A stretch of DNA of 59,528 nt from a virus (lineage: Duplodnaviria; Caudoviricetes), in the IMG/VR virus record IMGVR_UViG_3300037780_000215, positions 1 to 59,528 of that record. The stretch is one strand, 5' to 3'. The position numbers and the translations under genes were made by a program. Positions 1-58,557 of this stretch are shown one piece after another. Numbering within the stretch: the stretch's first letter is position 1; every line of letters starts with the position of its first letter. The notes under the pieces were generated by a model. It was not told the DNA's origin. It made no database searches and saw nothing but the letters and a program-made list of their open reading frames with translations.

Positions 1-561
1 CTACGAATAAGCCCGGCGCAGCCATCCGGTCTGGAAGGCGGCGAACTTGGCATTTCCAGCGATCAGCGAGCGGTAGAAGCCCGCCGCTTCAGAGCGCAGC
101 GCAGCGCGCAAAGCGAAGGGTCCGAGATCCGCTTCGATACGCTGAACTGTGCGCACCGTGATCGGCCCGATGATGCCGTCATCCGTGATATTCTGGCTGC
201 AGGCCCTGCATGCCCGCTGAAGCAGCTTGACGGCCTGGCGCGGCCCCATGTTCACGGCAAGGTCGAATACCTTGATGGCGATGGTCTCATGGAAGCGATC
301 CCAGCCGTGCGGGTCCCAGAAGCGGGCGCGATACGCGGCGATGGCATCCTCGCGCGTCAGCGCCCGGATATCGTCCGCATCAATGTCGCCGTCGCCGTCA
401 TAGTCGTAGAGCGCTGCATCGAGACGCCCCGCCTCGATTTCCGCTTTCAAAAAACGCAATGAGACGCCGAAATTCGTGGCGCCTCCCGGATCGGACGGGT
501 GATCTACAAACCCACCCTCATGATCGAGGACGACTTCAATTGCCCGGTCGAATGCGGTCAT
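1..561 (-). CDS. Endolysin, glycoside hydrolase family 108 with C-terminal peptidoglycan-binding domain
   Basis: HEGGFVDHPSDPGGATNFGV motif, FDLAVNMG, DDGIIGPIT, C-terminal GWLRR. Confidence 0.92.
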   Translation of the reverse strand: MTAFDRAIEVVLDHEGGFVDHPSDPGGATNFGVSLRFLKAEIEAGRLDAALYDYDGDGDIDADDIRALTREDAIAAYRARFWDPHGWDRFHETIAIKVFDLAVNMGPRQAVKLLQRACRACSQNITDDGIIGPITVRTVQRIEADLGPFALRAALRSEAAGFYRSLIAGNAKFAAFQTGWLRRAYS

Positions 562-8998: not shown

Positions 8999-9396
8999 CA
9001 GACACTCCAAGCTTTCAGGGCGAAACGGCGGGGCATTTCGATGACGCCGCCGCGCGGGCCAAGGGCATGCACGCAGGCATTTCCGACGATCCCACAGGCC
9101 GGCCAGCCATCACGGCCGGAGGGCAGAATGGCCAGATCGCCGACAATGGTTTGAAGGGGCGCGACCGGCCGGAAATACCGATCCGCTAGATCAGCCATGG
9201 ACTTCGCGCCCAGCGTCTTCAGCGCGCGCTTGGCGCCGGCCAGCGTCGTCCGGCCGGGAATCGTGAGCGGGACGTCCCATCCGATCCGGGCCAGATGCGC
9301 GCACCAAAAAGCCCCGCAATCGCTTGCGGGGCCGTACTCGAAGGGTCTGGATTGAAATTCCAGCACGGTCTGTTCGACCGCTCGCCAACGCTCCAT
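8998..9396 (-). CDS. NlpC/P60-like tail assembly protein (DUF6950-like)
   Basis: RPFEYGPASDCG motif and GDLAIL; position between hub and tip genes. Confidence 0.7.
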   Translation of the reverse strand: MERWRAVEQTVLEFQSRPFEYGPASDCGAFWCAHLARIGWDVPLTIPGRTTLAGAKRALKTLGAKSMADLADRYFRPVAPLQTIVGDLAILPSGRDGWPACGIVGNACVHALGPRGGVIEMPRRFALKAWSV

Positions 9397-9405
9397 AGCA
9401 ACAGC

Positions 9406-10059
9406 CTAGTAGAGGTTGAAGTCGGGGCCGCCGGGGCGGCTGCCGCCGCCGCCGCCGCCGCCCGTATAAGCGCCGCCACCGCCACCGCGGCGCGGGTCGA
9501 TGCCGTCCTCGTCCCCCCAGGGGAAGTCGAGATATCCATCATCGGTGTACTGGCAGTAGAGGTCCCCGGACCAAACGCCCTCCTGCTGCGCAGGAATCCA
9601 GCGGCCGGTCGATTTGCGCATCGCCCACTCAAGGGCCCCGATGCACTGGACCTCAGCACCGATGGTCCCGTCCTTGTCCGAAATCCGGATCGTGGGCTGA
9701 TCGACGCGGCCGGTAAAAATGATGTCCGGGTCCGCGGCGGGCTGGCCGGTCTCCCGGTCGAGCAGGTTGAAATACGCCGTGATCTGGGAGCCGCGGACCA
9801 GATAGTCCTGCAGCTCATCCATCAGGTTCGGATCCAACCCGGTGAGCTCGCAGGTGAATTGCGGCGACACCGATTGCATCGATCCCTCGACCGTCCCGAC
9901 CGAACCAAGCTCGCCGACACCGGTCCAGGTCTGGCCGAGCATGATGATGTCTCCGACCCCGGTCCAGAACCGGGCAGTATAGCCCGGAAGGTCGATCCGC
10001 ACGGCGTTGAACGGGCAATAGACCGGTTGTTCAAGATCGTTCTGAGCAAGTGCAGCCAT
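9406..10059 (-). CDS. Minor tail / baseplate hub protein
   Basis: RFWTGVGDI...GQTWTGVGELGSV and IFTGRVD motifs; position in tail tip module. Confidence 0.7.
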   Translation of the reverse strand: MAALAQNDLEQPVYCPFNAVRIDLPGYTARFWTGVGDIIMLGQTWTGVGELGSVGTVEGSMQSVSPQFTCELTGLDPNLMDELQDYLVRGSQITAYFNLLDRETGQPAADPDIIFTGRVDQPTIRISDKDGTIGAEVQCIGALEWAMRKSTGRWIPAQQEGVWSGDLYCQYTDDGYLDFPWGDEDGIDPRRGGGGGAYTGGGGGGGSRPGGPDFNLY

Positions 10060-24627: not shown

Positions 24628-26283
24628 CTAGACGTAGAATTCTTCGCTTTCATAGACCGAGGGCCCGTGCTCGGTTTCGAAGCGCTTCGCTATGCCCAGA
24701 GCCATCGCCAGCGTCACCGCACCGTCGATCCGCAGCAGGGCCGCCTTGTTGGACTTCTCTTTGTCGATCTTCAGATTGCCGGCCGGGTCGGAGACCGTGA
24801 TTGCGTTCGCGACGCAGGCGGTCAGAACCGGATTGTCGCCGTGCCGGATCCGACCAGTCAGCGCGCATTCGGCGAACTGCTCGACGGCTGGCGCCATATC
24901 CTTGAAGCCCTGGCCATAGGGTTCAAGCGGCAACTCCTCGAGCCCCATGTCGGCCAGATCGGCTTTCAGATCGTCGATCCTCCAGCGGTCGAAGCCGATG
25001 GTCTGGATATCGAACCGGCCCATCAGGTCCGCGATCGTCTTGGCCATGTAGCGATATCGGATCGTCGCGCCGGGAACCGCTTCGATGAACCCGCGGTCGA
25101 TCCACTGCTGCATCAGTTTGCGCTCGCGTTCCTTGCGGAGCTCCATCGCGCCTTCCGGCGTCCAGAAGTAAGCGAGCACGTCGTAGACCGGCTCTTCGCT
25201 ATCGTCGGGAAAGACGAGCGTCAGGCTGGTCAGGTCGTTCTTGCCCGACAGGTCGAGACCGCCGTAGCACTTCCGGCCGGCCAGATCGTCTGGATGGATC
25301 ACGTCACCCCCGCATGCCTTCCAGACCGGCTTCGTGACGATGCGAGCATCTGCGTTCGCATCGACGCGCTGGTTCAGCCTCAGATTTCGAAATGCCGGCT
25401 CGAACGCCGGCGAGCGCCGCGCCCTCTCCGCCTCCTTCAGGAGTGTGCCCAGGTCGAGAAAGTGATCGACCGCGGGATTGCAGGCCCGGATCGTCTCCTC
25501 CGCAAACGGGTCCGCATCCTCCGGCGCGGCGGAAAGATGAAGCACCATCGACTTGTCCAGCCCGAGCAGGGCGTCGTCGATCAGCTGCGAGAGCGGATGA
25601 TCGTCGGTTGCCGCCTGGGTGGAGATCACCATCCCGAGCGACCGCTTTCGCTTGCCGCGCGCCGTGATCAGGTTGTCCAGCAGCTCGCGCGACTTCGCCT
25701 GAGCGAGCTCGTCGTAGACCCAGAACGACGGCGCCAGGCCGTGGGCCCGACGAGCATCCTGCGACAGTGCCTCGTAGACCGACCCGTATCCGTCGTGCTC
25801 CGGATCCGTGACCTCGATCTTCTTGTGGAACCGCTGAATGTTCACGACGGCCGCGAACTCCGGCACCGCCAGGATTATCGCCTCCATCTCGTTGAACATG
25901 ATGCCGGCCTGCTGCCGGTCGATGCCGGCCGAGTAGCACTCGCCGCGCGGCTCACATTCCGGGCCCACCAGATGACATAGGCCCAGGCCGGCGATCAGCC
26001 CCGTCTTTCCGTTCCCGCGCGGTTCGGACTTGATGGCCAGATCGAGCCCCTGCCCGACCGCCTCGTCTCCGTAGACCTGCTCAATGAATTCCCGCTGCTC
26101 CGGCAGAAGCTTCATCTTCGTGCCGGCGATCAGCCCTTTCGTGATCGGGAGGAATTCCAGGAACGCGACGACACGTTCGACCCGGCTCAGGCCCTTTTTC
26201 TTCCACGGCATTCGCCGCTTTGACTTCTCAGCCTCAGCCCGGGCCGCCTTTGCGCGCTGGGCCCCAGGGCCGCGAAGTCCCAT
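24628..26283 (-). CDS. Terminase large subunit
   Basis: PRGNGKT Walker A, VYDE Walker B, ISTQ, GGLDLS..DLT and RIDGAV nuclease motifs. Confidence 0.95.
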   Translation of the reverse strand: MGLRGPGAQRAKAARAEAEKSKRRMPWKKKGLSRVERVVAFLEFLPITKGLIAGTKMKLLPEQREFIEQVYGDEAVGQGLDLAIKSEPRGNGKTGLIAGLGLCHLVGPECEPRGECYSAGIDRQQAGIMFNEMEAIILAVPEFAAVVNIQRFHKKIEVTDPEHDGYGSVYEALSQDARRAHGLAPSFWVYDELAQAKSRELLDNLITARGKRKRSLGMVISTQAATDDHPLSQLIDDALLGLDKSMVLHLSAAPEDADPFAEETIRACNPAVDHFLDLGTLLKEAERARRSPAFEPAFRNLRLNQRVDANADARIVTKPVWKACGGDVIHPDDLAGRKCYGGLDLSGKNDLTSLTLVFPDDSEEPVYDVLAYFWTPEGAMELRKERERKLMQQWIDRGFIEAVPGATIRYRYMAKTIADLMGRFDIQTIGFDRWRIDDLKADLADMGLEELPLEPYGQGFKDMAPAVEQFAECALTGRIRHGDNPVLTACVANAITVSDPAGNLKIDKEKSNKAALLRIDGAVTLAMALGIAKRFETEHGPSVYESEEFYV

Positions 26284-26490
26284 GCATCACCTTTTGGCTG
26301 CTGCGATTTTTGATTTTCGTTGGCCGATCAACAACTTGCTGCGGTTCGGCGAAAAATTAATTCTCTCCCACACTCCCCCGCCGGCCCCTTGGCGAACGGC
26401 GCTCGGGAATTCATGCCCCCCCATATCCAATTGAATACACGGGACATTTCGGAGCGCTGAGCGCGAGTGAGCGTTGATCGGGGCATCGGT
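26284..26490. other. Probable cos/packaging region
   Basis: Non-coding gap between HNH and terL with G runs and AT tracts, the usual cos position in HK97-like phages; exact cut site not determined. Confidence 0.4.
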
Positions 26491-26826
26491 CTAGCCCCTA
26501 TTGGCGGGGTGTGCGGGATCGATAGGCCAGCCATCGGCGCCTAGGGCGTCGTCATATCCGTGGATTTCTTGGCGCTGCTTGCGCTCGCTGTGGCACCTAG
26601 CGCAAAGCGATTGTGTGTTGTCCGGGTCGATGAATAAGGACCAATCGCCCTTGTGCGGTTCGACATGGTCGACGGTATCAGCGGGCGTGGTCTCACCTTC
26701 GTCCGCGCACATTCGGCACAGAGGCTCGATATTGAGGCGCCATAGGCGCAAGCGGGCCCAGGTCGCGCGCTTGTACCAGCGCCGATAGGCCTGGGCTTCC
26801 TCGCTTCTGGCATCGGCCCGGCTCAT
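26491..26826 (-). CDS. Packaging-associated HNH endonuclease
   Basis: EPLCRMC...VDHVEPHKGD...NTQSLCARCHS. Confidence 0.92.
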   Translation of the reverse strand: MSRADARSEEAQAYRRWYKRATWARLRLWRLNIEPLCRMCADEGETTPADTVDHVEPHKGDWSLFIDPDNTQSLCARCHSERKQRQEIHGYDDALGADGWPIDPAHPANRG

Positions 26827-26895
26827 ATCCGCCCCATATAAGGTGCATATTACGCACGATTTCGCAGTTTCGTGCGGTTTTTTCTACTTTTTCGG

Positions 26896-26923
26896 TTGAC
26901 GTGACACAGGCCTATGGTATGAA
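26896..26923 (+). promoter_or_regulatory. Sigma70-like promoter of the accessory operon
   Basis: TTGACG-N16-TATGAA with TG extension and T-rich upstream region. Confidence 0.5.
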
Positions 26924-26969
26924 GGGGCCATCGGGGCGTTATGCCCGCCACTGCAACGGATGCCTGACT

Positions 26970-27278
26970 ATGCAAGACGCTCTCATTTGGACCGATGCCT
27001 TTTCAAAGTTCGGCTTTGGAGATGGCGACGACACCATCCACACCGAGACTGTGGCTGAATATCTCACCGCGTTCGGCTTCACCGTCGATGTCTATCGCGG
27101 CGGTTGCCACAACGAATACATCACCAGCGTCCGCGGCCCGGACGGCGCCGACCTGATGGACGGCCGCAAAGCGGGATACACCGACCCGCGGTCCTTCATG
27201 CCCGCTGGCATTGTCCGGGCTCTGGATCGCAAATTCGGCGAAGTCATCCCCGAGCTGATGTGCTTCGAATACCGATAA
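26970..27278 (+). CDS. Hypothetical protein (accessory island)
   Basis: GGA RBS; phage-like codon usage. Confidence 0.65.
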   Translation: MQDALIWTDAFSKFGFGDGDDTIHTETVAEYLTAFGFTVDVYRGGCHNEYITSVRGPDGADLMDGRKAGYTDPRSFMPAGIVRALDRKFGEVIPELMCFEYR

Positions 27279-27365
27279 CACCGGATCGCGGCCGCGCCGT
27301 CGGCCGCCTTCCCGTGCGATTGGCACGACTTAGGGCTTTATGCCCGCCGAACCCGGAGAAAAGAC

Positions 27366-27761
27366 ATGACGATCAACGATCAATCGCCAGCCTTTCGCGC
27401 CGCTGAGCTCGCCGCTTTGATTTCCGCAAGCCATCGCGGGGAGGTCTCGCCTTTCCGGATTGCGCGTTTCGTCCGCAGCGTCCAAGCCCTGACGAAGCGA
27501 GCGAAGTCGCACGCCGTGCGGATGTGCAACGAAGCGGATTACGTCGAGCGCTGGCAAGATCCAGAAACGGGCGAAGACCGCAGGCAAGCGAAGTTCGACC
27601 AGAAAGCCGCGGCCCTGATTACGGATTTCTATGACCAAGCCCGGCGCCCGACTCCGATTATGTCGCTCGATATTGGCGGCGATCCGCGCGGCGCTTGCGG
27701 CACCCTCCATATCAAAGGACTTGCCGGAGACGGGTTTGGCGGCGGCTTCCCGATCTACTAG
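27366..27761 (+). CDS. Hypothetical protein (accessory island)
   Basis: GGAG RBS; C-terminal GGDPRGAC motif. Confidence 0.7.
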   Translation: MTINDQSPAFRAAELAALISASHRGEVSPFRIARFVRSVQALTKRAKSHAVRMCNEADYVERWQDPETGEDRRQAKFDQKAAALITDFYDQARRPTPIMSLDIGGDPRGACGTLHIKGLAGDGFGGGFPIY

Positions 27762-27861
27762 CCGCCCGATTAGGCGCCGTTGCACCAGCGGCGGCGCCCT
27801 TTCCGGCCGCTAGATGCCGAAACCGAGGGCTTTGTGCCCGCCATTATTGGAGAATGACGAA

Positions 27862-29001
27862 ATGACGAATGCTTCCGAAACCCTGACGATTGACGCTGTT
27901 GCCGCTCTGGATGCCGTGAAGCGCGTTCGCGCGATCATTGACCGGCGCAACACGGTCCCGCTTCTGGCCGCGGTTCTGATCGAAGCCAGCGAAACCGGCG
28001 TGGTGTTCAAGTCGACCGATTGCGATGCGGAAATCGCCGTCGATGTTGGCGCCCTGTCCGGCGCCGGTAGCTTCCGTGTTGCCACGAATGCCGAAGGCCT
28101 GGCCAAGATCCTGGCCGGATCGAAGCGCGGCGAAGAAATCGAGCTCGCCGCTTCGGGCGGTGGTGACGTGCTCCTTCAGGCTGGCGGCGTCGACTTCACC
28201 CTGCCCGGCGTTGACCCGGCGGGCTGGCCGACTATCGAGTTTGAGCCGGCGTCTTATGTCGCGTTGCCCGGCACGTTCGGCGAAACACTGGCTTTCGTGT
28301 CCCGCGGCATGTCGACCGAAGCAACCCGCTTTTATCTCAACGGTGCCTGCCTCTATGACGACGGCGTCGAATGCGGGCTGGTCGCAACAGACGGGTGCCG
28401 CATGTTCGGCGAGCGCCTGCCGTCTATCGAGCCGGGCACGCTCGCTCTTCCCGGTAGCGGCTACGGCGCGCAAGCCATCATTCCGCGCGGGGTCGTGCCG
28501 TCCATTGTTTCTGCCCTGGCCGGTGACGTCTCCGGCGTGCTCGAGAGCGCGGCCAATCGTCCGGCGGTGCGGATCAAGTGCGGCCCGGTGACGATTACGA
28601 CGAAGCTGGTCGACGGCACGTTTCCGGACTGGCGCCGCGTCCGCCCGCGCACAGATGCCAACGCTTTCGGCTTCGAAGCGACGCGCGAGGCGATCGAGGT
28701 GCCCATGAAGCGCGCCATGAAAGTCGGCTCGAACCGATTCCAGGCCATTCGCGTGACTGTCAACGGATCTGTTCGTGTCGACGTCAACGGCCACGAATGC
28801 GGCAAGGCGTCCGCCGAAATCGATGCGGCGGACAAATGGGGCGAGTCCTGCATCGGCTTCGACGGTGTCAAGGTTCTGGCGTTCATGCCGGACAAGGGCG
28901 AAGCGATCCGCATTCAGTGCAGTGAGGCAACGCAACCGGCTCTGATGCAGTATCCGGCGCACCCGGACCGCTTCGGCGTCCTGATGCCGGTGCGCGTCTA
29001 G
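27862..29001 (+). CDS. dnaN: DNA polymerase III beta sliding clamp homologue
   Basis: RRNTVPLL..VLI, STEATRFYLNG, VATDG.RM, TKLVDGTFPDWRRV, IGF and C-terminal VLMPVRV. Confidence 0.9.
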   Translation: MTNASETLTIDAVAALDAVKRVRAIIDRRNTVPLLAAVLIEASETGVVFKSTDCDAEIAVDVGALSGAGSFRVATNAEGLAKILAGSKRGEEIELAASGGGDVLLQAGGVDFTLPGVDPAGWPTIEFEPASYVALPGTFGETLAFVSRGMSTEATRFYLNGACLYDDGVECGLVATDGCRMFGERLPSIEPGTLALPGSGYGAQAIIPRGVVPSIVSALAGDVSGVLESAANRPAVRIKCGPVTITTKLVDGTFPDWRRVRPRTDANAFGFEATREAIEVPMKRAMKVGSNRFQAIRVTVNGSVRVDVNGHECGKASAEIDAADKWGESCIGFDGVKVLAFMPDKGEAIRIQCSEATQPALMQYPAHPDRFGVLMPVRV

Positions 29002-29093
29002 CGGCCCAGCCGGATCGGGCATCGCTGCGACGCGGTGCCCCTTCCCGCTGGGCTGGCCAGCGCATAGAGTGACCAGAGACAGGAGCATTGACG

Positions 29094-29345
29094 ATGGCAC
29101 GACAAACCGAATGGACCGCCACCCTACGCGATGGCACCGAAACCCGTGTATTCACCGATCCGGACGCTACGGAAGACGAGGCGCGCGCAAAGCTCGCTCG
29201 TATGATGAAGCACGGGCACCAAAATATGCTTCTCGATACTTCGCCAAGCCGCCACCCGGTGATATTGGACGAGCTCGCCACCGCGGGCGCAAAGCGTGAC
29301 TTCGGCGACGATATCGTGAGCATCAAGCGCGCGAACCCGGCATGA
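29094..29345 (+). CDS. Small hypothetical protein upstream of an HTH gene
   Basis: AGGAG RBS; ATGA coupling to the HTH gene. Confidence 0.65.
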   Translation: MARQTEWTATLRDGTETRVFTDPDATEDEARAKLARMMKHGHQNMLLDTSPSRHPVILDELATAGAKRDFGDDIVSIKRANPA

Positions 29346-29569
29346 CCGGCGAAGAATTCAAAGCGCTCCGGCGAGCTATGGGCCTCAGTATCGAGGACTT
29401 GGCCGACGCGCTGGAAATGACCGGCAACGATCCGGGCCGCACGATCCGGCGCTGGGAGTCCGGCAAGTACGATATCCCGGGCCCGACCGCCATTGCGATG
29501 CGGCACTTGGCCGAATGCGAAGGCCGTGCCTGCAGCGTGGAGCATACCGGCGTCCGGTGTAGACCTTGA
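29342..29569 (+). CDS. XRE-family HTH protein (Aca-like)
   Basis: FKALRRAMGLSIEDLADAL...TIRRWESGKYDIP. Confidence 0.85.
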   Translation: MTGEEFKALRRAMGLSIEDLADALEMTGNDPGRTIRRWESGKYDIPGPTAIAMRHLAECEGRACSVEHTGVRCRP

Positions 29570-29632
29570 ACCCTGCCGGTGGGATACTCACCGGTGTCGA
29601 AAGGGCTATATGCCCGCCTCATGGAGGACGAA

Positions 29633-29848
29633 ATGGCAAAGCAGACATTCGCCACACCAGAACCGGTTTCACCGGAGCGGCTGATTGCCTTCCGCGAAGC
29701 CCGCGGGCTCACCGTCAAGGATCTGTCGATCATGACTGGTGTCGATCGCGGCACGCTAACTCGTTACGAGAGCGGCGAGACGCCGGCACATCCGATGCTC
29801 GGCCTGGCCTTGGGCGCTATCGCCTACGGCCTCCCGCCCTACAATTGA
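29633..29848 (+). CDS. XRE-family HTH protein
   Basis: LIAFREARGLTVKDLSIMTGVDRGTLTRYESG; GGAGG RBS. Confidence 0.85.
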   Translation: MAKQTFATPEPVSPERLIAFREARGLTVKDLSIMTGVDRGTLTRYESGETPAHPMLGLALGAIAYGLPPYN

Positions 29849-30049
29849 TGGCGGCCGGAATGGGAACCTTACTGGTGTGGGTCTTTCTGGTGTCGATGAC
29901 GGTGTCGGCCGGTGTGCACCTGGCGGCCGAGCCGCCTGACGATTAACCCCCCAACCACACCCGGGCCGCCCCGCATGCACATCCCATGGCGAAGGCAGCG
30001 AGGGCCGTCATGACGAGGATGGTGGAGGCGGTGAGGTGTTCTTGGCGGG

Positions 30050-30247
30050 TCATTTGGCTTTGGCCTCAAGGGTGTCGATTCGGGATTCCTGAACGCTGCT
30101 GATCGAGGATTGGACGGACAGCCCTTCTTCCAGCGCGGCCACGTAGCTTTGGAGCTTTCGGGTGCGCCGGTCGAGACGGAACACAGCCCACAGCAGGAAC
30201 ACGACGTTCAGGGCGATCAGCATGAGGGCGATGGATGTGAGGGTCAT
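30050..30247 (-). CDS. Small membrane protein (TM plus coiled coil)
   Basis: N-terminal hydrophobic helix; GAGG RBS. Confidence 0.55.
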   Translation of the reverse strand: MTLTSIALMLIALNVVFLLWAVFRLDRRTRKLQSYVAALEEGLSVQSSISSVQESRIDTLEAKAK

Positions 30248-30296
30248 GTCAGGCCTCGCTTTCGTTCAAAAAATGCACTGATCGGGGATTTTCCCC

Positions 30297-30325
30297 TTGA
30301 CATTGTGCACCGCGCGGTGCATATT
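30297..30325 (+). promoter_or_regulatory. Sigma70 promoter with a perfect 16-bp palindromic operator
   Basis: TTGACA-N17-CATATT; TGCACCGCGCGGTGCA at 30306-30321. Confidence 0.75.
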
Positions 30326-30350
30326 ACGGTCATCAACAAAGGAGACCGAC

Positions 30351-30629
30351 ATGCAAGCCATCCAGAAGCAGCCCGCTACCGTAACCGTAGGGCGTTCCGC
30401 CGTGCCGTTCTCGAGCTACAAGGCGGCTAGTGAACTCTATTTGGACGCGATCAGGGCGACCGGGGCGACATCTGGGTGCGGCGATCCCAGTCGCGCCGCG
30501 CCACATTGCTTCTTACGGGACGAAGACGGTGCGATCTGCGGGCGCGTGACGTACAATGGTCGAGTGTGGGCGTGCACCGAAGACAGCGCGTTCAACAACG
30601 GCCTTCAGTGCCTTTATCGACCGGCATGA
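30351..30629 (+). CDS. Small hypothetical protein upstream of an HTH gene
   Basis: AAAGGAG RBS; GRVTYNGRVW motif; ATGA coupling. Confidence 0.75.
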   Translation: MQAIQKQPATVTVGRSAVPFSSYKAASELYLDAIRATGATSGCGDPSRAAPHCFLRDEDGAICGRVTYNGRVWACTEDSAFNNGLQCLYRPA

Positions 30630-30814
30630 CCCCCGCCCGCCTCATCGAATGGCGCAAACAGCGTGGCTTCTCGCAAGAGGAGGCCGCGCGCTTCATCGGC
30701 GCCGGGAACGCTCGCAACAGGTGGAGCCGCTGCGAGCGCGGCGAGGAAGAAATCCCCGAGCTTTGGCTGTGGGCCATCACCGGGCGGACACTGGCCGTCA
30801 AGCCTATCGAATAA
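30626..30814 (+). CDS. XRE-family HTH protein (Aca-like)
   Basis: MTPARLIEWRKQRGFSQEEAARFIG...WSRCERGEEEIP. Confidence 0.8.
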   Translation: MTPARLIEWRKQRGFSQEEAARFIGAGNARNRWSRCERGEEEIPELWLWAITGRTLAVKPIE

Positions 30815-30891
30815 CCCCTCGCCTATCTCGAACTGGCCTTGAAGCTTAAGGCAGTGGGAGATGGAGTAGGACAGGCTTTAGAAAGGACGAG

Positions 30892-31146
30892 ATGATGACC
30901 GCAGCGACCTGCCCGCACTGCCACAAAAAAGCGGGGCAATACGACGGGTTTCGACTTCCGACGCGCGGGCCGGTACCCTTTGAAACGGAGCACCCGTCCG
31001 TTGCAACTCCACTGGGCTACCTGCAGAGCGGTCGATGCGGCTCCTGCGGCGTGGCGCTGATCCTTAATTCGATTCACGGCGTGTATTGCCGTGAGGCGGA
31101 TCGCGCTGAGGCGTGGGCAGACATCGCATTGGAGCAGAGGCAGTAG
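30892..31146 (+). CDS. Small Cys-rich (zinc ribbon-like) protein
   Basis: CPHC and CGSC pairs; AAGGA RBS. Confidence 0.55.
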   Translation: MMTAATCPHCHKKAGQYDGFRLPTRGPVPFETEHPSVATPLGYLQSGRCGSCGVALILNSIHGVYCREADRAEAWADIALEQRQ

Positions 31147-31212
31147 CCTGCCGCTCTATCCAGGTGAGCTACGGGGCGGGACGGAACCGCTCACAGTCCC
31201 GCATTTTTCTGG

Positions 31213-31240
31213 TTGACTACGTACACGGATCGTGTACATT
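31213..31240 (+). promoter_or_regulatory. Sigma70 promoter with an inverted-repeat operator
   Basis: TTGACT-N16-TACATT; GTACACG-gat-CGTGTAC at 31221-31237. Confidence 0.7.
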
Positions 31241-31292
31241 GCTCACATCAGGCGGATGGATTAGCCAACCGCCATAGGGATGGAGCCCTGAT

Positions 31293-31625
31293 ATGATCAT
31301 CACCAAAGAAACCGCTATCCGTGCCTTCCTCGACGCCCGCGGCGACGACATGATCGACGACGCTGATATCGCGGAAGCCGTTCGTGAGATTGGCGACCCC
31401 ACCGCCAACCTGCCGGTCACCGAGACCTTGGAAACCGCAGATAACTATCGCGCTGCCGGATATTCAGACGAAGCGCGCGCTTGGGCCGATGAATACCGCG
31501 AGCAAGGCCTGACCGTCCTTTCGAAGGTCACGGGCCAGCGCAACACGAAGCGCGGCTATGTCGATATCATCCGCACCGTGATGATCGCCGACACCGGCGA
31601 CAAGCGTCTGGTGTCGGTTCAGTGA
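31293..31625 (+). CDS. Small acidic hypothetical protein upstream of an HTH gene
   Basis: GGAG RBS; GTGA coupling to the HTH gene. Confidence 0.75.
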   Translation: MIITKETAIRAFLDARGDDMIDDADIAEAVREIGDPTANLPVTETLETADNYRAAGYSDEARAWADEYREQGLTVLSKVTGQRNTKRGYVDIIRTVMIADTGDKRLVSVQ

Positions 31626-31957
31626 CCCCCTACGCTCTTCTGCTCAGGCTCTCCGGCCTCTCCCAGCGAGAGGCCGCGACCTTTCATGACGTCGCACTGG
31701 ACAGCGTGAAAAGTTGGTGCAGCAACCGCCGCCCGACGCCACCGGGCGCTATAGAGGAATTGCGCGACCTCATTGCCAAGCAGGAGCGGGCGGCGAGGGT
31801 GGCTCTGGCGAAGTACCGCGAGTTAACCGCGGATCACGGACGCCCCGAAACGGTCTCGCTGTCCATTCCCGCTGGCGATTGGCCTGCTGAAAGCGCTGGT
31901 CAGATGGCCCTTGCCAGGGTCGCCGCGGCGATCCGCTCAGAGGTAGATCTGGCATAG
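31622..31957 (+). CDS. HTH protein (Aca2-like size and layout)
   Basis: LLRLSGLSQREAATFHDVALDSVKSWCSNRRPTP plus C-terminal helical extension. Confidence 0.75.
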   Translation: MTPYALLLRLSGLSQREAATFHDVALDSVKSWCSNRRPTPPGAIEELRDLIAKQERAARVALAKYRELTADHGRPETVSLSIPAGDWPAESAGQMALARVAAAIRSEVDLA

Positions 31958-32635
31958 CGTGCGGCCCAGTCGCGACCGCCAGAACCGTCCGCGGCGCCCA
32001 ACGCAGCGACTACCTGCACAGTTGTCAGTGCCGGCGCTCGACGGACGGGTCTATTGTAATGTCGCCAGGCGGGCTCGATGGGATGCCGCTTCCGGGCTTC
32101 TACCGGCTGGTATGCTGTCAGGCCCTCGATTTCGGCGTTCGCTCAGTACCGGCCTTCAATCCACGAGGCGCTACCCCGCTTCAATCCAGCCTATCACGTC
32201 GCCGCTTTCATCCAGGCTCGGACCCGTCTTCCGTGCACAGTCCACGGGCCGGAGGGGCGCAACCACTCGATAACCGCGCGCTCTCGCGCCGCTGACAGCA
32301 ATCCCCCATCCCGGTCATCCAACTCTGTCGTGAGCCAGAGCCGTAGCGGGACAGGGAAAGGCGAAACTCTTGAGCCCTATAGCGGCGGGGGTGATATCAA
32401 GTCCCCCGCCGGGCCAGTAGGGCAATTTGATCGGGTGCCCGAGTCCGGTCTCTAAGACCACCGGGGCGCTACCCTGCCTCATGACAGGACGCTTGTCCGG
32501 CTGGTGACCTCGCTCTGCTTCGGCCTCCTCCGAGGGAATTCCCGCGCTCCACCCGACATGAAAACGCCCGGCACCATTTCTGGCCCGGGCGGATTCTTTC
32601 AACATGGGATTTGGAATCACGCCAACCGCACCCCG

Positions 32636-33463
32636 TCAACCGGTTTTTCGAAAATTTTTTCGCCTTTCGTCCCTGTGCTTATACGCCGCGACGATCTGGA
32701 CGCCTTGCATAAGCCTGTCCCAGCGAGCAAATCCGGCAACGGCGTCGAGCCCCGCGAAAATCGACTTCTTAACGGCGTTCGCCGTCCGCCCGGTGCCATT
32801 CGCGACCTGCGTCGGGGTTTTTCCGTAACCGACGACCGAATCAAGGTCCCTGAACCGGCGTTCCGTCATCCCCGGCGCATCCATGACGTTCAGCCGCTCC
32901 ATGGTGGCCTCCATACGGGCATGCATAGCCGCCTGCGGATCGCCGGACCCATCGACGCTTTCGGACATGAAGCCGGGCCCGCCGCCGATGCCATTGGCCC
33001 GGTTGAAATAACGCTCCCAGACCTGGGCGGCCCGGTACCGGCAGATCGCGACGTCCTTATCCGGTGCCAGCGATCCGCGGCGGTACATGCTGTCGATCGG
33101 GTGGCGCGTATCGAGCCGGGCCCAGACCCGCGGCCCGTTCGGCCGTTCCGGATCCGCCGGCGTCGGCACGAAATGCGACATATCGAGAAGCTGGCCGTCC
33201 CGGCCCGGCGCCATATCCGGCGGCGCATGGCTGCCGGTGGCCACGCCCCATCCGCTGATGACGCCAGCCTGGGCCAGCTCGGCGTAGAACAGGCGGCGGC
33301 GGCGCTCGATGTGCGGCGGGAAGTAGATGCCCTTCGGCGTTCCGGTGTCGCGCTCGTCTGCCGGCCGGTCCTGGCGGTGCAGCCGGCGCAAGCGGCGTTC
33401 CATCTCGCGGTCCGTGGCCTCACGCGCGTAGCGGTCGAGATCGTCTTTCGAGATTTCCGTCAT
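32636..33463 (-). CDS. Putative late-gene transcriptional regulator (DUF6456-like)
   Basis: Last gene of the cro-side operon (lambda Q position); C-terminal HTH-like GKTPTQVANGTG. Confidence 0.5.
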   Translation of the reverse strand: MTEISKDDLDRYAREATDREMERRLRRLHRQDRPADERDTGTPKGIYFPPHIERRRRLFYAELAQAGVISGWGVATGSHAPPDMAPGRDGQLLDMSHFVPTPADPERPNGPRVWARLDTRHPIDSMYRRGSLAPDKDVAICRYRAAQVWERYFNRANGIGGGPGFMSESVDGSGDPQAAMHARMEATMERLNVMDAPGMTERRFRDLDSVVGYGKTPTQVANGTGRTANAVKKSIFAGLDAVAGFARWDRLMQGVQIVAAYKHRDERRKNFRKTG

Positions 33464-34881
33464 GCGGCCCGCTCCTCTGCACAGATCGCTTCCACCATCT
33501 CGATCCGCTGGCCGATCCATTCCATGCAGGGAACGGCCATTGAGTTGCCAAGGGCCTTGTATCTGGGACCGTCCGGGCATCTGTCTGCGCTCTTCCCGCG
33601 ATACGGAATCATCGTGAAATCGTCAGGGAATCCTTGAAGGCGCTCGCATTCTCGCGGTGTCAGTCGGCGCACGGCCCAATCGGTCGCTATGTTTCGCTCT
33701 TGCGCTCGACCGCCGCCGGTGGGGGCTGTCAATAGGCGGAGTTCGGCGCAGGAGTTCTCGGCAAAAGCGACGGCCTGCGTCCCGCCATCCGTGTCAATGG
33801 GGCCGCAGTACCCATCCCAGCTATCCGGATCCTGCCGTGCATTGAAAGCTACCGCCACCTGCCCGCCCGCGTTCGCATGGCTTCCGTCATGACCCATCGC
33901 ACGAAGTGTCGCCGACACTTCGTCCTGTGCATCCGCGCCATAGTCCTTGCTGGAGAAAGCAACAGGCAGAATGGGGGCGCCATCGCCATCGCCATCGCCA
34001 TCGCTGGATGGGCCCTTGTAGTCACGGGCTTTCAAGGCTGGCGAACATTCTGGCACACCGCAGACGGCGGTCAGACCGCCGTCTAGCTCGAAGTCGGTTC
34101 CGAGTCCGCCACCGCCTTGAGTGCGCGCGCTAAGGGTGGGGGCAGGCTTTTGCCCCGCTTCTCGGCGCGGCGGAGGATTCCCCGACAGGCTTTCGCGGTC
34201 AAAAAGTACCGCTGCGGCACGGCGCCAGTCTCCAAGATATCCGACAACGAACACACGACGGCGTCGCTGAGGTACAGCTCCGGTGTGCTCGCATGTTCGC
34301 ACGTATTGAGCGTCAAGAGTCCGGTAAGCGACGCCATACCCGAGTTCTGAAAGTCCGGCGAGGAAGCACCCCAGGGCGTGCGTTTCTTGACCGTCGTGCT
34401 CGTCCTCGACCACGATCTCTTCCCCGTCTCCGGGTCCGTTTCCACCCTCCAAGTCGATGTCCGGCGGACATGGATCGGGTATGTCGTCGGTGGTGCTTGA
34501 AAAGACACCGGGGACATTCTCCCAAACGACCCAGCGGGGCTTATAGCGTTCAGCAATGGCAAGATAGACGAGGGCCAGGTTACCACGCGGATCGTCCAAT
34601 CCCTTTCGCAGTCCGGCGACGCTGAAGGGCTGGCATGGGGTTCCGCCGACAAGAAGGTCAATTGCATGGTCTGGCCACTCCTCGAATTTCGTCATGTCGC
34701 CATGGTTCGGGACCCCGTTTCCGGAATGCTCCTCGCCGGGCATGTTCGACCCGTAGTGATGCGCCAGAACGGCGCTGGGAAACTTCTCGATCTCGCTGAA
34801 GAACGCCGGCGTCCATCCGAGCGGATGCCATGCTTGGGTTGCGGCCTCGATACCGCTGCAGACTGATCCGTAGCGCATCAC
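33460..34881 (-). CDS. C5-cytosine DNA methyltransferase
   Basis: Motifs SVCSGIE (I), GGTPCQ (IV), WENV (VI), QRRRRVF (VIII), RRLTPRECERLQGFP (IX), YKALGNS (X). Confidence 0.95.
   Translation of the reverse strand: MMRYGSVCSGIEAATQAWHPLGWTPAFFSEIEKFPSAVLAHHYGSNMPGEEHSGNGVPNHGDMTKFEEWPDHAIDLLVGGTPCQPFSVAGLRKGLDDPRGNLALVYLAIAERYKPRWVVWENVPGVFSSTTDDIPDPCPPDIDLEGGNGPGDGEEIVVEDEHDGQETHALGCFLAGLSELGYGVAYRTLDAQYVRTCEHTGAVPQRRRRVFVVGYLGDWRRAAAVLFDRESLSGNPPPRREAGQKPAPTLSARTQGGGGLGTDFELDGGLTAVCGVPECSPALKARDYKGPSSDGDGDGDGAPILPVAFSSKDYGADAQDEVSATLRAMGHDGSHANAGGQVAVAFNARQDPDSWDGYCGPIDTDGGTQAVAFAENSCAELRLLTAPTGGGRAQERNIATDWAVRRLTPRECERLQGFPDDFTMIPYRGKSADRCPDGPRYKALGNSMAVPCMEWIGQRIEMVEAICAEERAA
34083..34667 (-). 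CDS. Nested alternative-frame ORF resembling the M.EcoHK31I beta polypeptide
   Basis: NSGM...TLNTCEH...CSLSDILET...RYFLT...ILRRAEKRGK.LP; GAGGAG RBS upstream of ATG. Confidence 0.55.
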   Translation of the reverse strand: MQLTFLSAEPHASPSASPDCERDWTIRVVTWPSSILPLLNAISPAGSFGRMSPVSFQAPPTTYPIHVRRTSTWRVETDPETGKRSWSRTSTTVKKRTPWGASSPDFQNSGMASLTGLLTLNTCEHASTPELYLSDAVVCSLSDILETGAVPQRYFLTAKACRGILRRAEKRGKSLPPPLARALKAVADSEPTSS

Positions 34882-35210
34882 GCCGCCCTCCCCGCGCTAT
34901 CCCGCATTGTCACGATCACGGCGACGGCAAGGTCTTGCATGTGCGCCGCGGCTTCCTCTCCGGTCAGCCGGTCACAGCCCTCCGTGGAGAGCATACGGAC
35001 CAGATTTGCGGAGGTGTCGTAGGCGTCGATCGCTGACGCCCGGTCTTCAGCTGCATGAGCGCTATTCGCCGCGGTCCTGGCGGCGTGAAGGACCAGGTTG
35101 GACAGGGCGGCCCGGACAGCGAGCCGGCGGCGTTCCGGGAAACCATGGGTCAGCTGATCGGTCAGCCCGTCGATCCGGGCCTTGATCGTGGGATTATCAA
35201 GAATGCTCAT
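34878..35210 (-). CDS. Hypothetical protein
   Basis: Overlapping start/stop coupling with both neighbours. Confidence 0.6.
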   Translation of the reverse strand: MSILDNPTIKARIDGLTDQLTHGFPERRRLAVRAALSNLVLHAARTAANSAHAAEDRASAIDAYDTSANLVRMLSTEGCDRLTGEEAAAHMQDLAVAVIVTMRDSAGRAA

Positions 35211-44448: not shown

Positions 44449-44745
44449 GTGTTTGAAATCGACATGCGCGCCGATCCGGTCGGCGTCGAGTGGGCCGACG
44501 ATGGCAGCGGGGCCGAAATCCTGCTGGACATCCGCGAGCTGCGGTTCGATCTCGGCGATGGCGAGCGCAAGCGGCGAAGGCTGCGCGTCTCGCTCTCCCG
44601 CCACAGCATCAACTGGCTGTGGGGCAACCTGGACCGGGAGATCGTGCTGGAGCTTTTCCGCGTCCAGCGAGACGGGGGCACATCCCCTCGCCTTCAGGAA
44701 GTCGCGCGGGCCCTGGGCCTGGATGAGGACGGCGACGGGCACTAG
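44449..44745 (+). CDS. Hypothetical protein convergent with cro
   Basis: GGGAG RBS and GTG start; protein-like composition. Confidence 0.5.
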   Translation: MFEIDMRADPVGVEWADDGSGAEILLDIRELRFDLGDGERKRRRLRVSLSRHSINWLWGNLDREIVLELFRVQRDGGTSPRLQEVARALGLDEDGDGH

Positions 44746-44990
44746 GCGGCGTCCGCTTGGCCATCAGCCCGGCGCTCGGATTTCGCGGCGGAATACCACT
44801 CGTACATTTCCCGGTGCGTTACCGATCCGCCGGTCGCGTCCTCTATCTGGTAGCCAACCTCGGCGCCGGCCGACTTGTGCCCCTTCAGAAGGTTGTAAAT
44901 GTGGCTCGCAGAGCGGCCGATGCGATTGGCGAACGCTTCCGGCGTCTCGCCAGCATCGTCCAACCAGTTTTTCAGCGGGTGCGTTCTCAT
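44742..44990 (-). CDS. Cro-like repressor
   Basis: HTH FANRIGRSASHIYNLL; IEDATGGSVT motif; divergent from cI. Confidence 0.85.
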   Translation of the reverse strand: MRTHPLKNWLDDAGETPEAFANRIGRSASHIYNLLKGHKSAGAEVGYQIEDATGGSVTHREMYEWYSAAKSERRADGQADAA

Positions 44991-44999
44991 GACGCCGAA

Positions 45000-45050
45000 C
45001 TATTCCATACGAATAGTGGGAAGGCAAGCGCCTTCATTCCATAAGAATAG
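45000..45050. promoter_or_regulatory. OR-like operators (two copies of ATTC-N5-GAATA)
   Basis: CTATTCcatacGAATAG at 45000-45016; TCATTCcataaGAATAG at 45034-45050. Confidence 0.8.
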
Positions 45051-45084: not shown

Positions 45085-45453
45085 ATGGAACAGCAGCGGT
45101 CATTTTACCTGAAACAATGGCGTGAGAAGCGCGGCCTTACTCAGGGCCAGCTGGCGAAGCTCGCCGGCATATCGGAGTCGCACGTAGCGAACCTCGAGCG
45201 CGGCGTGAAACGCTACAACGAGGGCAACCTACAAAGCCTGGCCAGCGCGCTTGGGATCAAGGTCTGGGAGTTGGTCGGGCGAGATCCCGGAGAGGATGAT
45301 GTTTCGCTAGATCTTATCTTTCGCGACGCCTCTCCCAGATTGAAACGCCAAGCCGAGCGGGTCTTGCGGTCTCTTGTACAGGAAGACGAAAGCACGCCTG
45401 GAGGCGCCAAGCGTGACGACGATCACGATCAAAGCGGCCGAAAGGCCGGATAG
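45085..45453 (+). CDS. CI-like immunity repressor (XRE HTH, no S24 peptidase domain)
   Basis: LKQWREKRGLTQGQLAKLAGISESHVANLERG; divergent from cro. Confidence 0.85.
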   Translation: MEQQRSFYLKQWREKRGLTQGQLAKLAGISESHVANLERGVKRYNEGNLQSLASALGIKVWELVGRDPGEDDVSLDLIFRDASPRLKRQAERVLRSLVQEDESTPGGAKRDDDHDQSGRKAG

Positions 45454-45483: not shown

Positions 45484-45927
45484 ATGAAACGACTGATCGG
45501 GCTTTGCGCCCTTGCTGCGCTGTGTGGGTGCTCCACGATCACGCGCGGAACAAACGATACTTGGGTGGTCGAAACCACGCCGCCGGGCGCGGAGGTTAGC
45601 ACTTCCAACGGATACCAATGCGCCAGCACTCCATGCGCGATCAAGATGCCGCGACGGTCCGAATTCGTCGCCACGATCGAGAAGGACGGCTACGAGACGG
45701 TAACCGTAAATGTGACTTACCAAGTGTCGGGGAGCGGTGGCGCGGCCATGGCTGGCAATGTCCTTGTTGGGGGCATCATTGGCGCGGCGGTTGATGCCGG
45801 CACAGGTTCTATGAATGATCTTGTTCCCAACCCGGTAGCCATTGATCTGGTGCCTGTTGCAAGCCCAGATCAGCCTGTGGCCGAACCGGCTGCAGAACTG
45901 GCCGCGGACGCGCCCGGTACGGGCTAA
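45484..45927 (+). CDS. Lipoprotein with PEGA-like domain
   Basis: Lipobox LCG-C; ETTPPGAEV, TPC, KDGY; GNVLVGGIIGAAVD glycine zipper. Confidence 0.8.
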   Translation: MKRLIGLCALAALCGCSTITRGTNDTWVVETTPPGAEVSTSNGYQCASTPCAIKMPRRSEFVATIEKDGYETVTVNVTYQVSGSGGAAMAGNVLVGGIIGAAVDAGTGSMNDLVPNPVAIDLVPVASPDQPVAEPAAELAADAPGTG

Positions 45928-46009: not shown

Positions 46010-46061
46010 CTATTCCAATGGAATATTTTTCGCTTGCCCCAATTATATTCGTATGGAATAG
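46010..46061. promoter_or_regulatory. OL-like operators over the early promoter
   Basis: CTATTCcaatgGAATAT at 46010-46026; ATATTCgtatgGAATAG at 46045-46061; same consensus as OR. Confidence 0.8.
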
Positions 46062-58212: not shown

Positions 58213-58557
58213 ATGGGCGCCGCTCGGAAGATCGACACTGATGCCCCGCCGCCGGTCGCCCCGCGCTGGCGCGATGACGTCGTGGCCGAAGAGCTGGGCG
58301 TGACCGTCGTTTGGCTCCGGCGCGAAATTCTGGATAAGGTGAAGGGCACCTGCCTGAAGACCGGGCGGTCGCGGTACCTCACAGAGCGTCACATCAAGAA
58401 GGTCGAGGCCATCATGGAAGCCATGGCCTCCGAGAAAGCAGAGGAGCGCGAATGTCGCTCAACCTCTACCGCCGCCCGTCCGGCATCTGGTACATCCGTG
58501 GGACGTTCAAAGGCGTCCGGGTGGATCAAAGCGCTCGAACTCGCTCAAAGAAAATAG
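58213..58557 (+). CDS. Excisionase-like HTH protein
   Basis: VAEELGVTVVWLRR...KTGRSRYLTE; overlaps the integrase 5' end. Confidence 0.6.
   Translation: MGAARKIDTDAPPPVAPRWRDDVVAEELGVTVVWLRREILDKVKGTCLKTGRSRYLTERHIKKVEAIMEAMASEKAEERECRSTSTAARPASGTSVGRSKASGWIKALELAQRK

Follow-up and report, generated by a model that had tools for sequence, protein, structure and literature searches.

A candidate accessory island of small HTH-coupled cargo operons with acr-aca-like wiring in a prophage from pond metagenomes

The acrIF8-aca2 operon of the temperate Pectobacterium phage ZF40 is a compact example of a cargo gene bound to its own repressor. In the portions of the source reports drawn on here, it has one inverted repeat in the promoter (IR1) and a second in the 5' untranslated region (IR2; PMC6765145), and its helix-turn-helix (HTH) regulator, Aca2, is a protein of 116 amino acids (aa) with two domains, the C-terminal one for dimerization (PMC8434428). 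Feussner et al. (2026; PMC13551039), again as excerpted for this work, describe Aca1 and Aca2 as serving several operons per regulator, with RNA motifs between the genes of one operon, and find LPD29 polyvalent-protein domains within aca4 operons. Polyvalent proteins have themselves been proposed as conflict effectors, and their unassigned domains, often also found solo, are considered likely early-invasion and counter-restriction factors in the part of Iyer et al. (2017; PMC5512222) used here. We examined a plus-strand block of small genes in the Caudoviricetes record IMGVR_UViG_3300037780_000215, which a first-pass annotation had described as an acr-aca-like anti-defence island. The whole record, a single contig of 59,528 bp, served as the analyzed window. 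We tentatively regard the block, at somewhat under even confidence, as an accessory, moron-type insertion of three self-contained units, each regulated by its own HTH protein and carrying early takeover or counter-defence cargo.

Three small open reading frames (ORFs) of the block are each followed directly, on the same strand, by an HTH gene, and each pair overlaps by 4 nucleotides (nt) (29094-29345/29342-29569 and 30351-30629/30626-30814 by ATGA, 31293-31625/31622-31957 by GTGA), in agreement with the three coupled pairs that the first-pass annotation had listed. Shine-Dalgarno sites are present, as read from the sequence, and the genes appear to fall into three units. Unit 1 would comprise promoter P1, o26970, o27366, a gene for a DnaN-like sliding clamp, the o29094-HTH29342 pair, and the solo regulator gene HTH29633; unit 2 would comprise P2, o30351, HTH30626, o30892, and a terminator-like hairpin; and unit 3 would comprise P3, o31293, and HTH31622. 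o26970 and o27366, which the first-pass annotation had named among its anti-defence candidates, belong to the operon with the clamp and have no HTH-terminated cassette of their own.

A scan of 26000-33000 for sigma70-like promoters returned exactly two sites, P2 and P3. Each has, as had been claimed, a palindrome in its spacer; this palindrome is perfect and occurs once in the genome. Perfect palindromes with arms of at least 7 nt stood at chance density genome-wide (29, against a mean of 30 in 30 simulations), and the non-random feature is that both promoter sites enclose one, for which our own estimate is roughly 5e-5. A promoter palindrome in the -35/-10 region is found for two of the three pairs, the 29094/29342 pair having no promoter of its own. 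P1 fell outside the scan's list because its second hexamer has no T at position 6, and the hairpin that ends unit 2 fell outside the corresponding list because its loop exceeds 8 nt.

This order of promoter, spacer palindrome, small ORF, and coupled HTH gene matches acrIF8-aca2 as presented in the excerpts of PMC6765145, and acr-aca-like wiring of the predicted units is supported. In both systems, as far as those excerpts and those of PMC8434428 reach, a strong sigma70 promoter has an inverted repeat between or over its -35 and -10 elements, a second repeat lies in the 5' untranslated region, a small cargo gene precedes the coupled HTH gene in a temperate phage, and the half-sites are short (4 nt) with spacers of 5 to 8 nt. 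The operators differ in sequence, those of the island being the putative TGCAC/GTGCA, TACAC/GTGTA, and GGGC/GCCC in place of TTCG-N6/N8. Unlike ZF40, no island cargo resembles AcrIF8, and the island is known from sequence alone. The layout itself is familiar: the wiring is of a known kind, that of acr-aca-type self-limited cargo operons.

Unit 1 contains a candidate operator of a different type. The 16-nt motif GGGC-N5-GCCCGCC occurs in four exact copies, at 26934, 27333, 27827, and 29603, where 0.01 was expected from 100 dinucleotide-preserving shuffles. All four are on the plus strand, ending 14 to 20 nt ahead of a start codon and 4 to 8 nt ahead of a Shine-Dalgarno sequence. The four G/C positions on each flank are invariant and the 5-nt core is variable, a pattern more in keeping with two half-sites or a 4-bp stem than with a -10 hexamer. 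We rejected the motif as a sigma70 promoter with a -35 element, since no conserved -35 is found 16 to 18 nt upstream across the four copies, and as a CI operator, since the CI-type operators of this genome are a different palindrome. A GGGC-N5-GCCC copy at 45499 lies inside the coding region of a lipoprotein signal peptide and was taken as chance.

The first-pass annotation had instead placed an inverted repeat, CCGGTG-N7-CACCGG, before the solo HTH gene. The repeat is present and unique, but it looks like one of four post-gene hairpins of unit 1, and the conserved element before the solo HTH gene is the 16-nt motif. The repeat sits between the stop codon of HTH29342 and a motif copy, as do the hairpins after o26970 and o27366; the hairpin after the clamp gene, which none of 200 shuffles equaled in stability, has no motif copy behind it. 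The solo HTH gene was likewise correctly reported at 29633, yet its end is overlapped (TGATG) by a 32-codon hydrophobic ORF.

The motif could be linked to the HTH29342 family through two unrelated loci. A metagenome scan for the motif followed by GGAG and ATG gave 27 single matches, about the chance level, and one of these 27 stretches, L176, encodes an HTH29342 homolog. There (877-1536), a TTGACA-N16-TACAAC promoter with the palindrome GGAAAT-A-ATTTCC in its spacer precedes GGGC-N5-GCCCGCC, and 3' of the motif an unrelated 80-aa ORF is overlapped by an HTH29342-like gene, to which a 53-aa membrane ORF is joined by ATGA coupling. L132, picked by its HTH gene only, has GGGC-N5-GCCC twice against 0.10 expected, a count reached by 1 of 200 shuffles. 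Between TerL and portal in this locus (2000-2660), which belongs to a TerL relative, two small acidic ORFs with identical ribosome-binding contexts each have a copy ahead, and a coupled HTH29342-like gene and then a further small ORF lie behind. Because the same palindrome precedes cargo genes in L176 and L132, we assign the motif to the HTH29342 family and predict that it is probably the operator of the closest family members; the other HTH29342-family loci have no GGGC-N5-GCCC copy near the HTH gene. Among the regulator-operator assignments, which we infer from the DNA, that of the motif to HTH29342 is the one cross-validated in other loci.

These features suggest how the island would work. 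In a temperate, siphovirus-like prophage, it would occupy the junction of the HNH-terminase genes with the end of the early/replication operon, and each unit would answer to a small XRE-type HTH protein of its own, not to the CI repressor of the prophage. Units 2 and 3 would act like acr-aca operons: the near-consensus promoters P2 and P3 would fire once the DNA is available, and the co-translated HTH protein would accumulate, bind as a dimer to the palindrome between -35 and -10, and shut its own operon, so that the cargo protein would be made as a pulse. In unit 1, GGGC-N5-GCCCGCC would be the operator of the HTH29342/HTH29633 family, acting as DNA at the P1 transcription start and possibly as an RNA stem-loop ahead of each gene, thereby throttling the genes. 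The cargo would most likely be early host-takeover or counter-defence proteins.

Such an arrangement would resemble the multi-operon Aca loci in the sections of PMC13551039 drawn on here, where one regulator family has several motif copies before neighboring genes or operons and also between the genes of one operon, the cargo is mostly unannotated, and polyvalent-protein-associated domains are among the regulated genes. The motifs presented in those sections are defined for Aca1, Aca2, Aca10, Aca12, and Aca14, and GGGC-N5-GCCCGCC and its HTH family are not shown among them. Unlike those loci, the island has the motif before a gene for a DnaN-like clamp.

The accessory nature of the island was assessed by comparison with phages having a related terminase. 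Of 83 TerL relatives in viral contigs, 80 were retained, and 17 window proteins were compared with these loci by tblastn, the DnaB and C5 methyltransferase rows standing outside the tally. HNH was matched in 27 of the 80 loci; the island proteins searched gave a single match, HTH29342 in L057, which is on the same contig as L132. The only other match listed was that of the flanking gene o32636 in L007, whose TerL is the closest (77% identical); in that locus the o32636 homolog (8725-9378) and HNH (9490-9825) share a strand and are separated by 111 nt. Since the island flanks are adjacent in L007 and the island proteins are nearly missing from the TerL-related loci, the island appears to be an accessory insertion. 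It is also inverted relative to both neighbors, lying on the plus strand between the minus-strand HNH gene and the minus-strand block from 32636, which bears out the earlier statement that the cassettes run opposite to the late genes. Inspection of seven TerL relatives showed the genes upstream of HNH running in the direction of HNH, save one opposite-strand ORF in L002. o32636, whose homolog lies just upstream of HNH-TerL in the closest relative, could be a late regulator or the small subunit of the terminase, and if so, the island splits the packaging module. Among 50,697 phage records, blastn gave no match to the island.

One metagenome contig of 240x depth (likeness of 85% or more) matches only short patches of 29950-35210; the identical fragments are of low depth. 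Its joints fall at gene boundaries: between 30054 and 30816 the membrane gene, o30351, and HTH30626 are passed over, between 30890 and 31151 o30892, and between 31179 and 32367 o31293 and HTH31622. The pattern is a hint of a related element in which the intergenic pieces are conserved and the cargo between them is different or missing; the matching sides, of only 26 to 75 nt, are too weak to count.

The CI-type operators of the prophage, of the form TATTCC-N3-GGAATA, occur in four copies at 45001-45049 and 46011-46060 (8 strand-matches, 0.78 expected), the second pair heading the rightward recombination operon. As all four lie outside the island, at 45.0 and 46.0 kb, the island promoters look independent of the immunity repressor.

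The XRE identity that had been given to the three paired regulators stands for HTH29342 and applies also to the solo HTH29633; both exceed the Pfam HTH_3/HTH_31 cut-offs, and they share 46% identity over 39 aa. It is less firm for HTH30626, which is below threshold and 35% identical to HTH29633 over 40 aa (BLAST E 1e-4), and weakly supported for HTH31622. The latter reached Pfam E values of 0.038 or weaker, and hhalign aligned its residues 8-53 to a 37-sequence HTH29342-like profile with 72.9% probability (E 3.1e-5), making it a probable divergent HTH protein. Its AlphaFold2 (AF2) model, built without an alignment, was unusable (pLDDT 57.7), and a complex prediction with o31293 scored 0.00, gave no verdict, and was used neither way. 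The start of HTH29342 is supported by the conserved N-terminus of its homologs; a word-index search returned nothing beyond its own cluster (P0035, 100% identical) and a pair of relatives that are 82% identical.

Homology to Aca proteins was examined with Pfam Aca2_YdiL (PF08965) and the PDB chains of Aca2 and Aca3. HTH29342 scored 23.8 bits, which equals the cut-off, along positions 1-55 of the 118-position profile, the HTH part only, and HTH30626 and HTH31622 gave E values of 0.019 and 0.038. Used as a single sequence against the PDB, HTH29342 matched Aca3 and Aca2 first (E 0.029-0.12). The 37-sequence profile matched 41 PDB sequences at E 0.01 or better and placed a designed binder, MBF, Aca3 (7e-6), CylR2, C.BclI, P22 C2, and HigA2 ahead of Aca2 (3e-4). 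In PADLOC, two HTH proteins gave generic matches of the HTH part only (RmrA, CapH). The matches of HTH29342 (75 aa), HTH29633 (71 aa), and HTH30626 (62 aa) end at the HTH, and no C-terminal dimerization domain was found in them, so that these single-domain XRE-type proteins of 62-75 aa are unlike ZF40 Aca2 as characterized in the excerpts of PMC8434428. By the profile, the HTH proteins are generic XRE proteins and not Aca2 members.

A literal acr-aca reading, in which the upstream ORFs are true anti-CRISPR (Acr) proteins and the HTH proteins Aca in the strict sense, is in our estimate very improbable, even though the layout matches acrIF8-aca2, HTH29342 sits at the Aca2_YdiL cut-off with Aca3 and Aca2 leading its single-sequence PDB matches, and o31293 and o26970 are small and acidic. 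The ORFs have no similarity to a solved Acr or a Pfam family, HTH29342 is far shorter than Aca2 and has no dimerization domain of the kind described in the part of PMC8434428 used here, the family profile ranks Aca2 behind many generic XRE proteins, and the sole functional lead, o30351, points to DNA methylation and restriction. Anti-CRISPR function specifically is unsupported.

That lead came from a HMMER search of 1.84 billion representatives with o30351, which returned 32 proteins at E 1e-3 or better, itself included. Of these, 23 are small relatives of 84-141 aa with a common conserved motif. Among the eight longer matches, P0024 (2358 aa) is of the polyvalent type, with InPase, N6_Mtase, and Eco57I domains, for P0026 no Pfam family was found, and the Pfam scan covered neither P0005 nor P0012; the other four, matches to SRCR, galaxin, Big_5, and Big_13 repeat proteins, were judged spurious, being multi-stretch matches to Cys-rich or repeat proteins. 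An alignment-based scan then placed the family at 9 genome loci, mostly of Alphaproteobacteria, and 25 viral loci. At 5 of these 34 loci the domain is part of a longer ORF, with lengths from 352 to more than 3105 aa. One of these (L102, at least 2644 aa) contains InPase and another (L110, at least 3105 aa) a Strawberry-notch-type helicase (AAA_34, Helicase_C_4) and a sub-threshold ART-PolyVal match; the ORFs of L112, L090, and L083 showed no family.

At six loci (L091, L092, L103, L107, L111, and L114), a methyltransferase ORF starts within 27 nt of the tblastn match to the o30351 family, on the same strand. These were identified by the Pfam C5 methylase model (L092, and weakly L111, with 19.7 bits against a cut-off of 22), by phrog_757 (L091, L103, L114), or by similarity (L107). 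A methyltransferase homolog lies within 936 nt in 12 of the 34 o30351 loci, compared with 1 of 80 TerL loci and 9 of 46 HTH loci, a control that is biased in that the queries came from o30351-family loci and most of the TerL loci cover structural regions. In a tblastn comparison with window proteins, the HNH and DnaB rows and the C5 methyltransferase rows for L001-L080 standing outside the tally, the neighboring methyltransferase of L099 and L100 shared 46% identity with the C5 methyltransferase of the window.

The AF2 model of o30351 was fairly confident (pLDDT 80.3). Foldseek found no fold match for it in the PDB (best E 0.47, TM <0.35), and its best match in BFVD was a 1176-aa uncharacterized phage protein (E 0.024, TMq 0.60). 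Like the LPDs in the portion of Iyer et al. (2017; PMC5512222) drawn on here, the o30351 family occurs both as a stand-alone protein of about 90 aa and as a domain in giant phage proteins with InPase, methylase, and SWI2/SNF2-type helicase. Unlike the named LPDs, none of its 24 members matches a Pfam LPD model, or any other Pfam model save for two weak CBM_5_12 matches. Among the cargo, o30351 makes the strongest case, and it would be the solo form of a domain otherwise found in polyvalent proteins or coupled to phage cytosine methyltransferases. The company of methyltransferases and polyvalent proteins points to counter-restriction and not to anti-CRISPR activity, and it is the sole evidence for counter-defence. 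The anti-defence candidacy proposed for the small ORFs is plausible for o30351; none of the cargo ORFs, this one included, resembles a known Acr, toxin, or defence protein. A specific possibility is that o30351 would inhibit modification-dependent (type IV) restriction attacking the phage's own methylated DNA. That both bolder proposals hold together, the motif being a dual DNA/RNA operator of a new short XRE family and o30351 a new counter-restriction domain, is in our view distinctly unlikely. With a dual operator, one island regulator would set translation gene by gene in an operon that includes a phage sliding clamp.

The pairs also call to mind type II toxin-antitoxin systems, a toxin gene first and an HTH gene second being the order of HigBA and MqsRA. 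As in those systems, a small first gene overlaps an XRE-type HTH gene, with a palindromic promoter and, putatively here, autoregulation. Thus the units could instead be morons expressed from the prophage to benefit the lysogen, whether toxin-antitoxin-like or superinfection-exclusion/abortive-infection modules, with the upstream ORF as effector, the HTH protein as antitoxin or repressor, and defence as their role. Promoters without a CI operator may be active in the lysogen, small membrane-type ORFs occur beside the HTH genes and in L176, the best PDB sequence matches of HTH30626 are antitoxin-type (HipB, an Xre regulator, MqsA, HigA; E 0.16-0.81), and NCBIfam gave sub-threshold matches of HTH29342 and HTH29633 to the HTH part of MqsA. 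Unlike in HigBA and MqsRA, no toxin family was found for o29094, o30351, or o31293 in Pfam, PADLOC, or NCBIfam, nor a defence family for any cargo ORF. RelE/HigB-type RNases are basic, unlike the cargo proteins, whose pI of 4.5-7.6 is acidic to neutral. A toxin that is obligate should stay with its antitoxin, yet no homolog of any window HTH adjoins the o30351-family member in any of the 34 loci (tblastn), and none of 10 downstream ORFs scanned in these loci is an HTH gene. We consider lysogen benefit in general, with the HigBA-like alternative raised in the first-pass annotation, an unlikely explanation.

The remaining cargo proteins gave no usable relatives in the searches made. One word-index search each of 5.8 billion proteins, with the 'longer' and 'shorter' length classes left out, found only o29094 and o31293 themselves. 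Single-protein scans of viral contigs found no relative of o31293, o30351, the clamp, o27366, or o26970, and a metagenome scan with the clamp found none either. The ESM Atlas had nothing usable for o27366 and o26970, and o30892 matched no PHROG, Pfam, or NCBIfam family.

The clamp itself is divergent. Its matches to Pfam DNA_pol3_beta were above the cut-offs for the N-terminal (50.7 bits) and central (35.7 bits) domains and below for the C-terminal one (17.4 bits), and TIGR00663 aligned over 15-378 with 108.7 bits, below the cut-off of 137.65. Taking the first-listed match per genome, it is 29-31% identical to a DnaN-like ORF in five genomes, three named as Alphaproteobacteria; these ORFs are presumably chromosomal dnaN. 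Its presence in unit 1 raises a plainer explanation, namely, that the block consists of ordinary early regulatory and replication-accessory genes without a defence role, the HTH proteins being Cro-, Ner-, or C-protein-like controllers, the clamp and two upstream ORFs aiding replication, and the small ORFs being uncharacterized early genes of the common sort. We judge this rather unlikely. It would suit the adjoining replication module (DnaB, Dam, and C5 methyltransferase), an HTH profile whose matches to the restriction-modification controller C.BclI and to phage repressors are as good as those to Aca proteins, and the HTH relatives and methyltransferases that share loci, as detailed below. 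It sits poorly with a block that is missing in the nearest relative and inverted against both neighbors, which implies that it is dispensable for the core life cycle, with units that have their own promoters and putative operators outside the early operons, and with the o30351 domain in polyvalent proteins, proposed conflict effectors in the part of PMC5512222 used here.

Our preferred reading, an accessory insertion of self-regulated cargo units, must in turn be weighed against a number of results that tell against it. The two promoter sites are not above chance in number (1.4 +/- 1.2 expected from shuffles), and the motif could be a promoter-like element, its core resembling an AT-rich -10. 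The HTH29342 family is, by its profile, generic XRE. In 48 viral loci of this family, 27 upstream ORFs overlap the HTH gene by 4 nt, a count that overstates coupling because an M-T start (ATGAC) makes a +1-frame TGA automatically and one cluster accounts for 11 of the 48. In genome G305, two family copies follow prophage portal genes with no small ORF between. The HTH gene directly follows a C5 methyltransferase in L138 and L140, and the link of o30351 to methyltransferases may partly reflect shared residence in early regions. A replication-type clamp is atypical as anti-defence cargo. The five cargo ORFs have no Pfam, PHROG, NCBIfam, or PADLOC family and no PDB sequence match, solved Acrs included, and for related HTH loci, 10 cargo ORFs were compared with Pfam and none matched a family. 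As the cargo ORFs here and in related loci match no known family, the association never reaches a validated anti-defence gene.

The neighborhoods of the HTH29342 family speak for the preferred reading by guilt by association: the upstream ORFs of the 48 loci form 30 unrelated clusters, none in common with the window. A family found behind such varied genes would be a mobile phage regulator, which fits the Aca idea and is not specific to it. Cytosine-methyltransferase homologs were present in 9 of the 46 loci picked only by an HTH29342-like gene (L115-L160), which suggests that early-region genes come from a common pool or that part of the family has a controller-like role. In L140, the HTH gene overlaps the end of a gene for a C5 methyltransferase, a close relative of the one in the window.

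The coordinates of the island and its surroundings are collected in Table 1. The record is cut at gene ends and has lysin and integrase genes at its two ends, and we take it to be a provirus excised from a longer contig; protein searches found window proteins on a contig of up to 528,903 bp. An HNH gene beside TerL is a mark of cos phages. The sequencing runs with this DNA are pond metagenomes only, with no RNA run among those listed, and the host is an uncultured pond bacterium, probably an alphaproteobacterium.

Table 1. Positions of the island genes, candidate regulatory elements, and flanking features in the 59,528-bp window
Feature	Position	Strand	Remarks
GH108 lysin	1-561	-	left end of record
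Late genes	1-26826	-	end with portal, TerL, HNH
TerL	24628-26283	-	
HNH	26491-26826	-	
Island block	26.9-32.0 kb	+	
P1, promoter-like	26896-26923	+	TTGACG-N16-TATGAA; heads unit 1; read from sequence
Motif copy 1	26934-26949	+	20 nt ahead of o26970 ATG
o26970	26970-27278	+	102 aa; acidic, pI 4.6
GC-rich hairpin after o26970	27283-27312	+	fold of 27279-27371, z -2.30; inverted repeat I1
Motif copy 2	27333-27348	+	6 nt ahead of o27366 GGAG
o27366	27366-27761	+	131 aa; sub-threshold DUF5902 match only (E 0.02)
GC-rich hairpin after o27366	27764-27807	+	fold of 27762-27867, z -2.30; inverted repeat I2
Motif copy 3	27827-27842	+	6 nt ahead of clamp-gene GGAG
DnaN-like sliding clamp, divergent	27862-29001	+	379 aa
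Very stable hairpin after clamp gene	29002-29055	+	fold of 29002-29100, -53.2 kcal/mol, z -4.45
o29094	29094-29345	+	83 aa
HTH29342	29342-29569	+	75 aa, XRE-type; ATGA-coupled to o29094; Pfam HTH_3 26.4 bits
CCGGTG-N7-CACCGG hairpin after HTH29342	29576-29594	+	unique in genome
Motif copy 4	29603-29618	+	4 nt ahead of HTH29633 GGAGG
HTH29633 (solo)	29633-29848	+	71 aa, XRE-type; Pfam HTH_31 32.9 bits, HTH_3 29.5 bits
32-codon hydrophobic ORF	29848-29946	+	overlaps HTH29633 stop (TGATG); candidate gene, translation only
Membrane-type ORF, 36 aa	29943-30053	-	overlaps 65-aa ORF
Membrane-type ORF, 65 aa	30050-30247	-	divergent from P2
P2, promoter-like	30297-30325	+	TTGACA-N17-CATATT; perfect palindrome TGCACCGCGCGGTGCA at 30306-30321 in spacer
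o30351	30351-30629	+	92 aa; uncharacterized family
HTH30626	30626-30814	+	62 aa; ATGA-coupled to o30351; HTH_31 25.6 bits (E 1.5e-5), cut-off 27
o30892	30892-31146	+	84 aa; CxxC...CxxC; third gene of unit 2
Terminator-like hairpin	31176-31210	+	7-bp GC stem then ATTTTTCT; ends unit 2 just ahead of P3; from fold
P3, promoter-like	31213-31240	+	TTGACT-N16-TACATT; palindrome GTACACG-N3-CGTGTAC at 31221-31237 in spacer
o31293	31293-31625	+	110 aa; acidic, pI 4.5
HTH31622	31622-31957	+	111 aa; GTGA-coupled to o31293; probable divergent HTH at residues 8-53 plus C-terminal extension
o32636	32636-33580	-	314 aa; basic; no Pfam or PHROG family
Early/replication block	32636 to ~45 kb	-	holds C5 methyltransferase, DnaB, Dam
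Cro-like/CI-like divergent pair	44.7-45.5 kb		
Immunity switch, Cro-like HTH	44742-44990	-	
Immunity switch, CI-like XRE	~45086-45453	+	
Recombination-side block		+	ERF, YqaJ exonuclease, HerA-like ATPase, integrase
Tyrosine integrase	58452-59528	+	right end of record

Several further features of the region were observed. The tiny membrane-type ORFs at 29848-30247 are convergent, the 32-aa ORF on the plus strand facing the 36-aa and 65-aa ORFs on the minus strand, with stop codons overlapping at 29943-29946; the 65-aa ORF has no Pfam match. Between HTH31622 and o32636, about 680 bp (31958-32635) are without a convincing ORF; the start of this stretch folds strongly (z -2.17), and three imperfect direct repeats of about 17 nt each, spaced by 25-26 nt, lie at 32147-32218. 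Rfam gave no match in the window at its gathering thresholds. Directly 3' of the CI-like gene, at a site typical for a lysogen-expressed exclusion or conversion gene, is a lipoprotein-type ORF of 147 aa (45484-45927, plus strand) whose signal peptide ends in Cys.

If the wiring works as proposed, the island would provide three operator-regulator pairs, along with five or six cargo proteins that lack annotation and could be screened against the defence systems of bacteria, all from a host group that has been sampled poorly. The cross-validation of the motif in two unrelated loci opens the regulator-operator assignment to a direct gel-shift test, and a dual operator, if true, would take RNA control of the Aca2 type outside the known Aca families and outside anti-CRISPR cargo. 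The most useful lead is the o30351 family, a compact domain with no known fold match and a candidate counter-restriction function.

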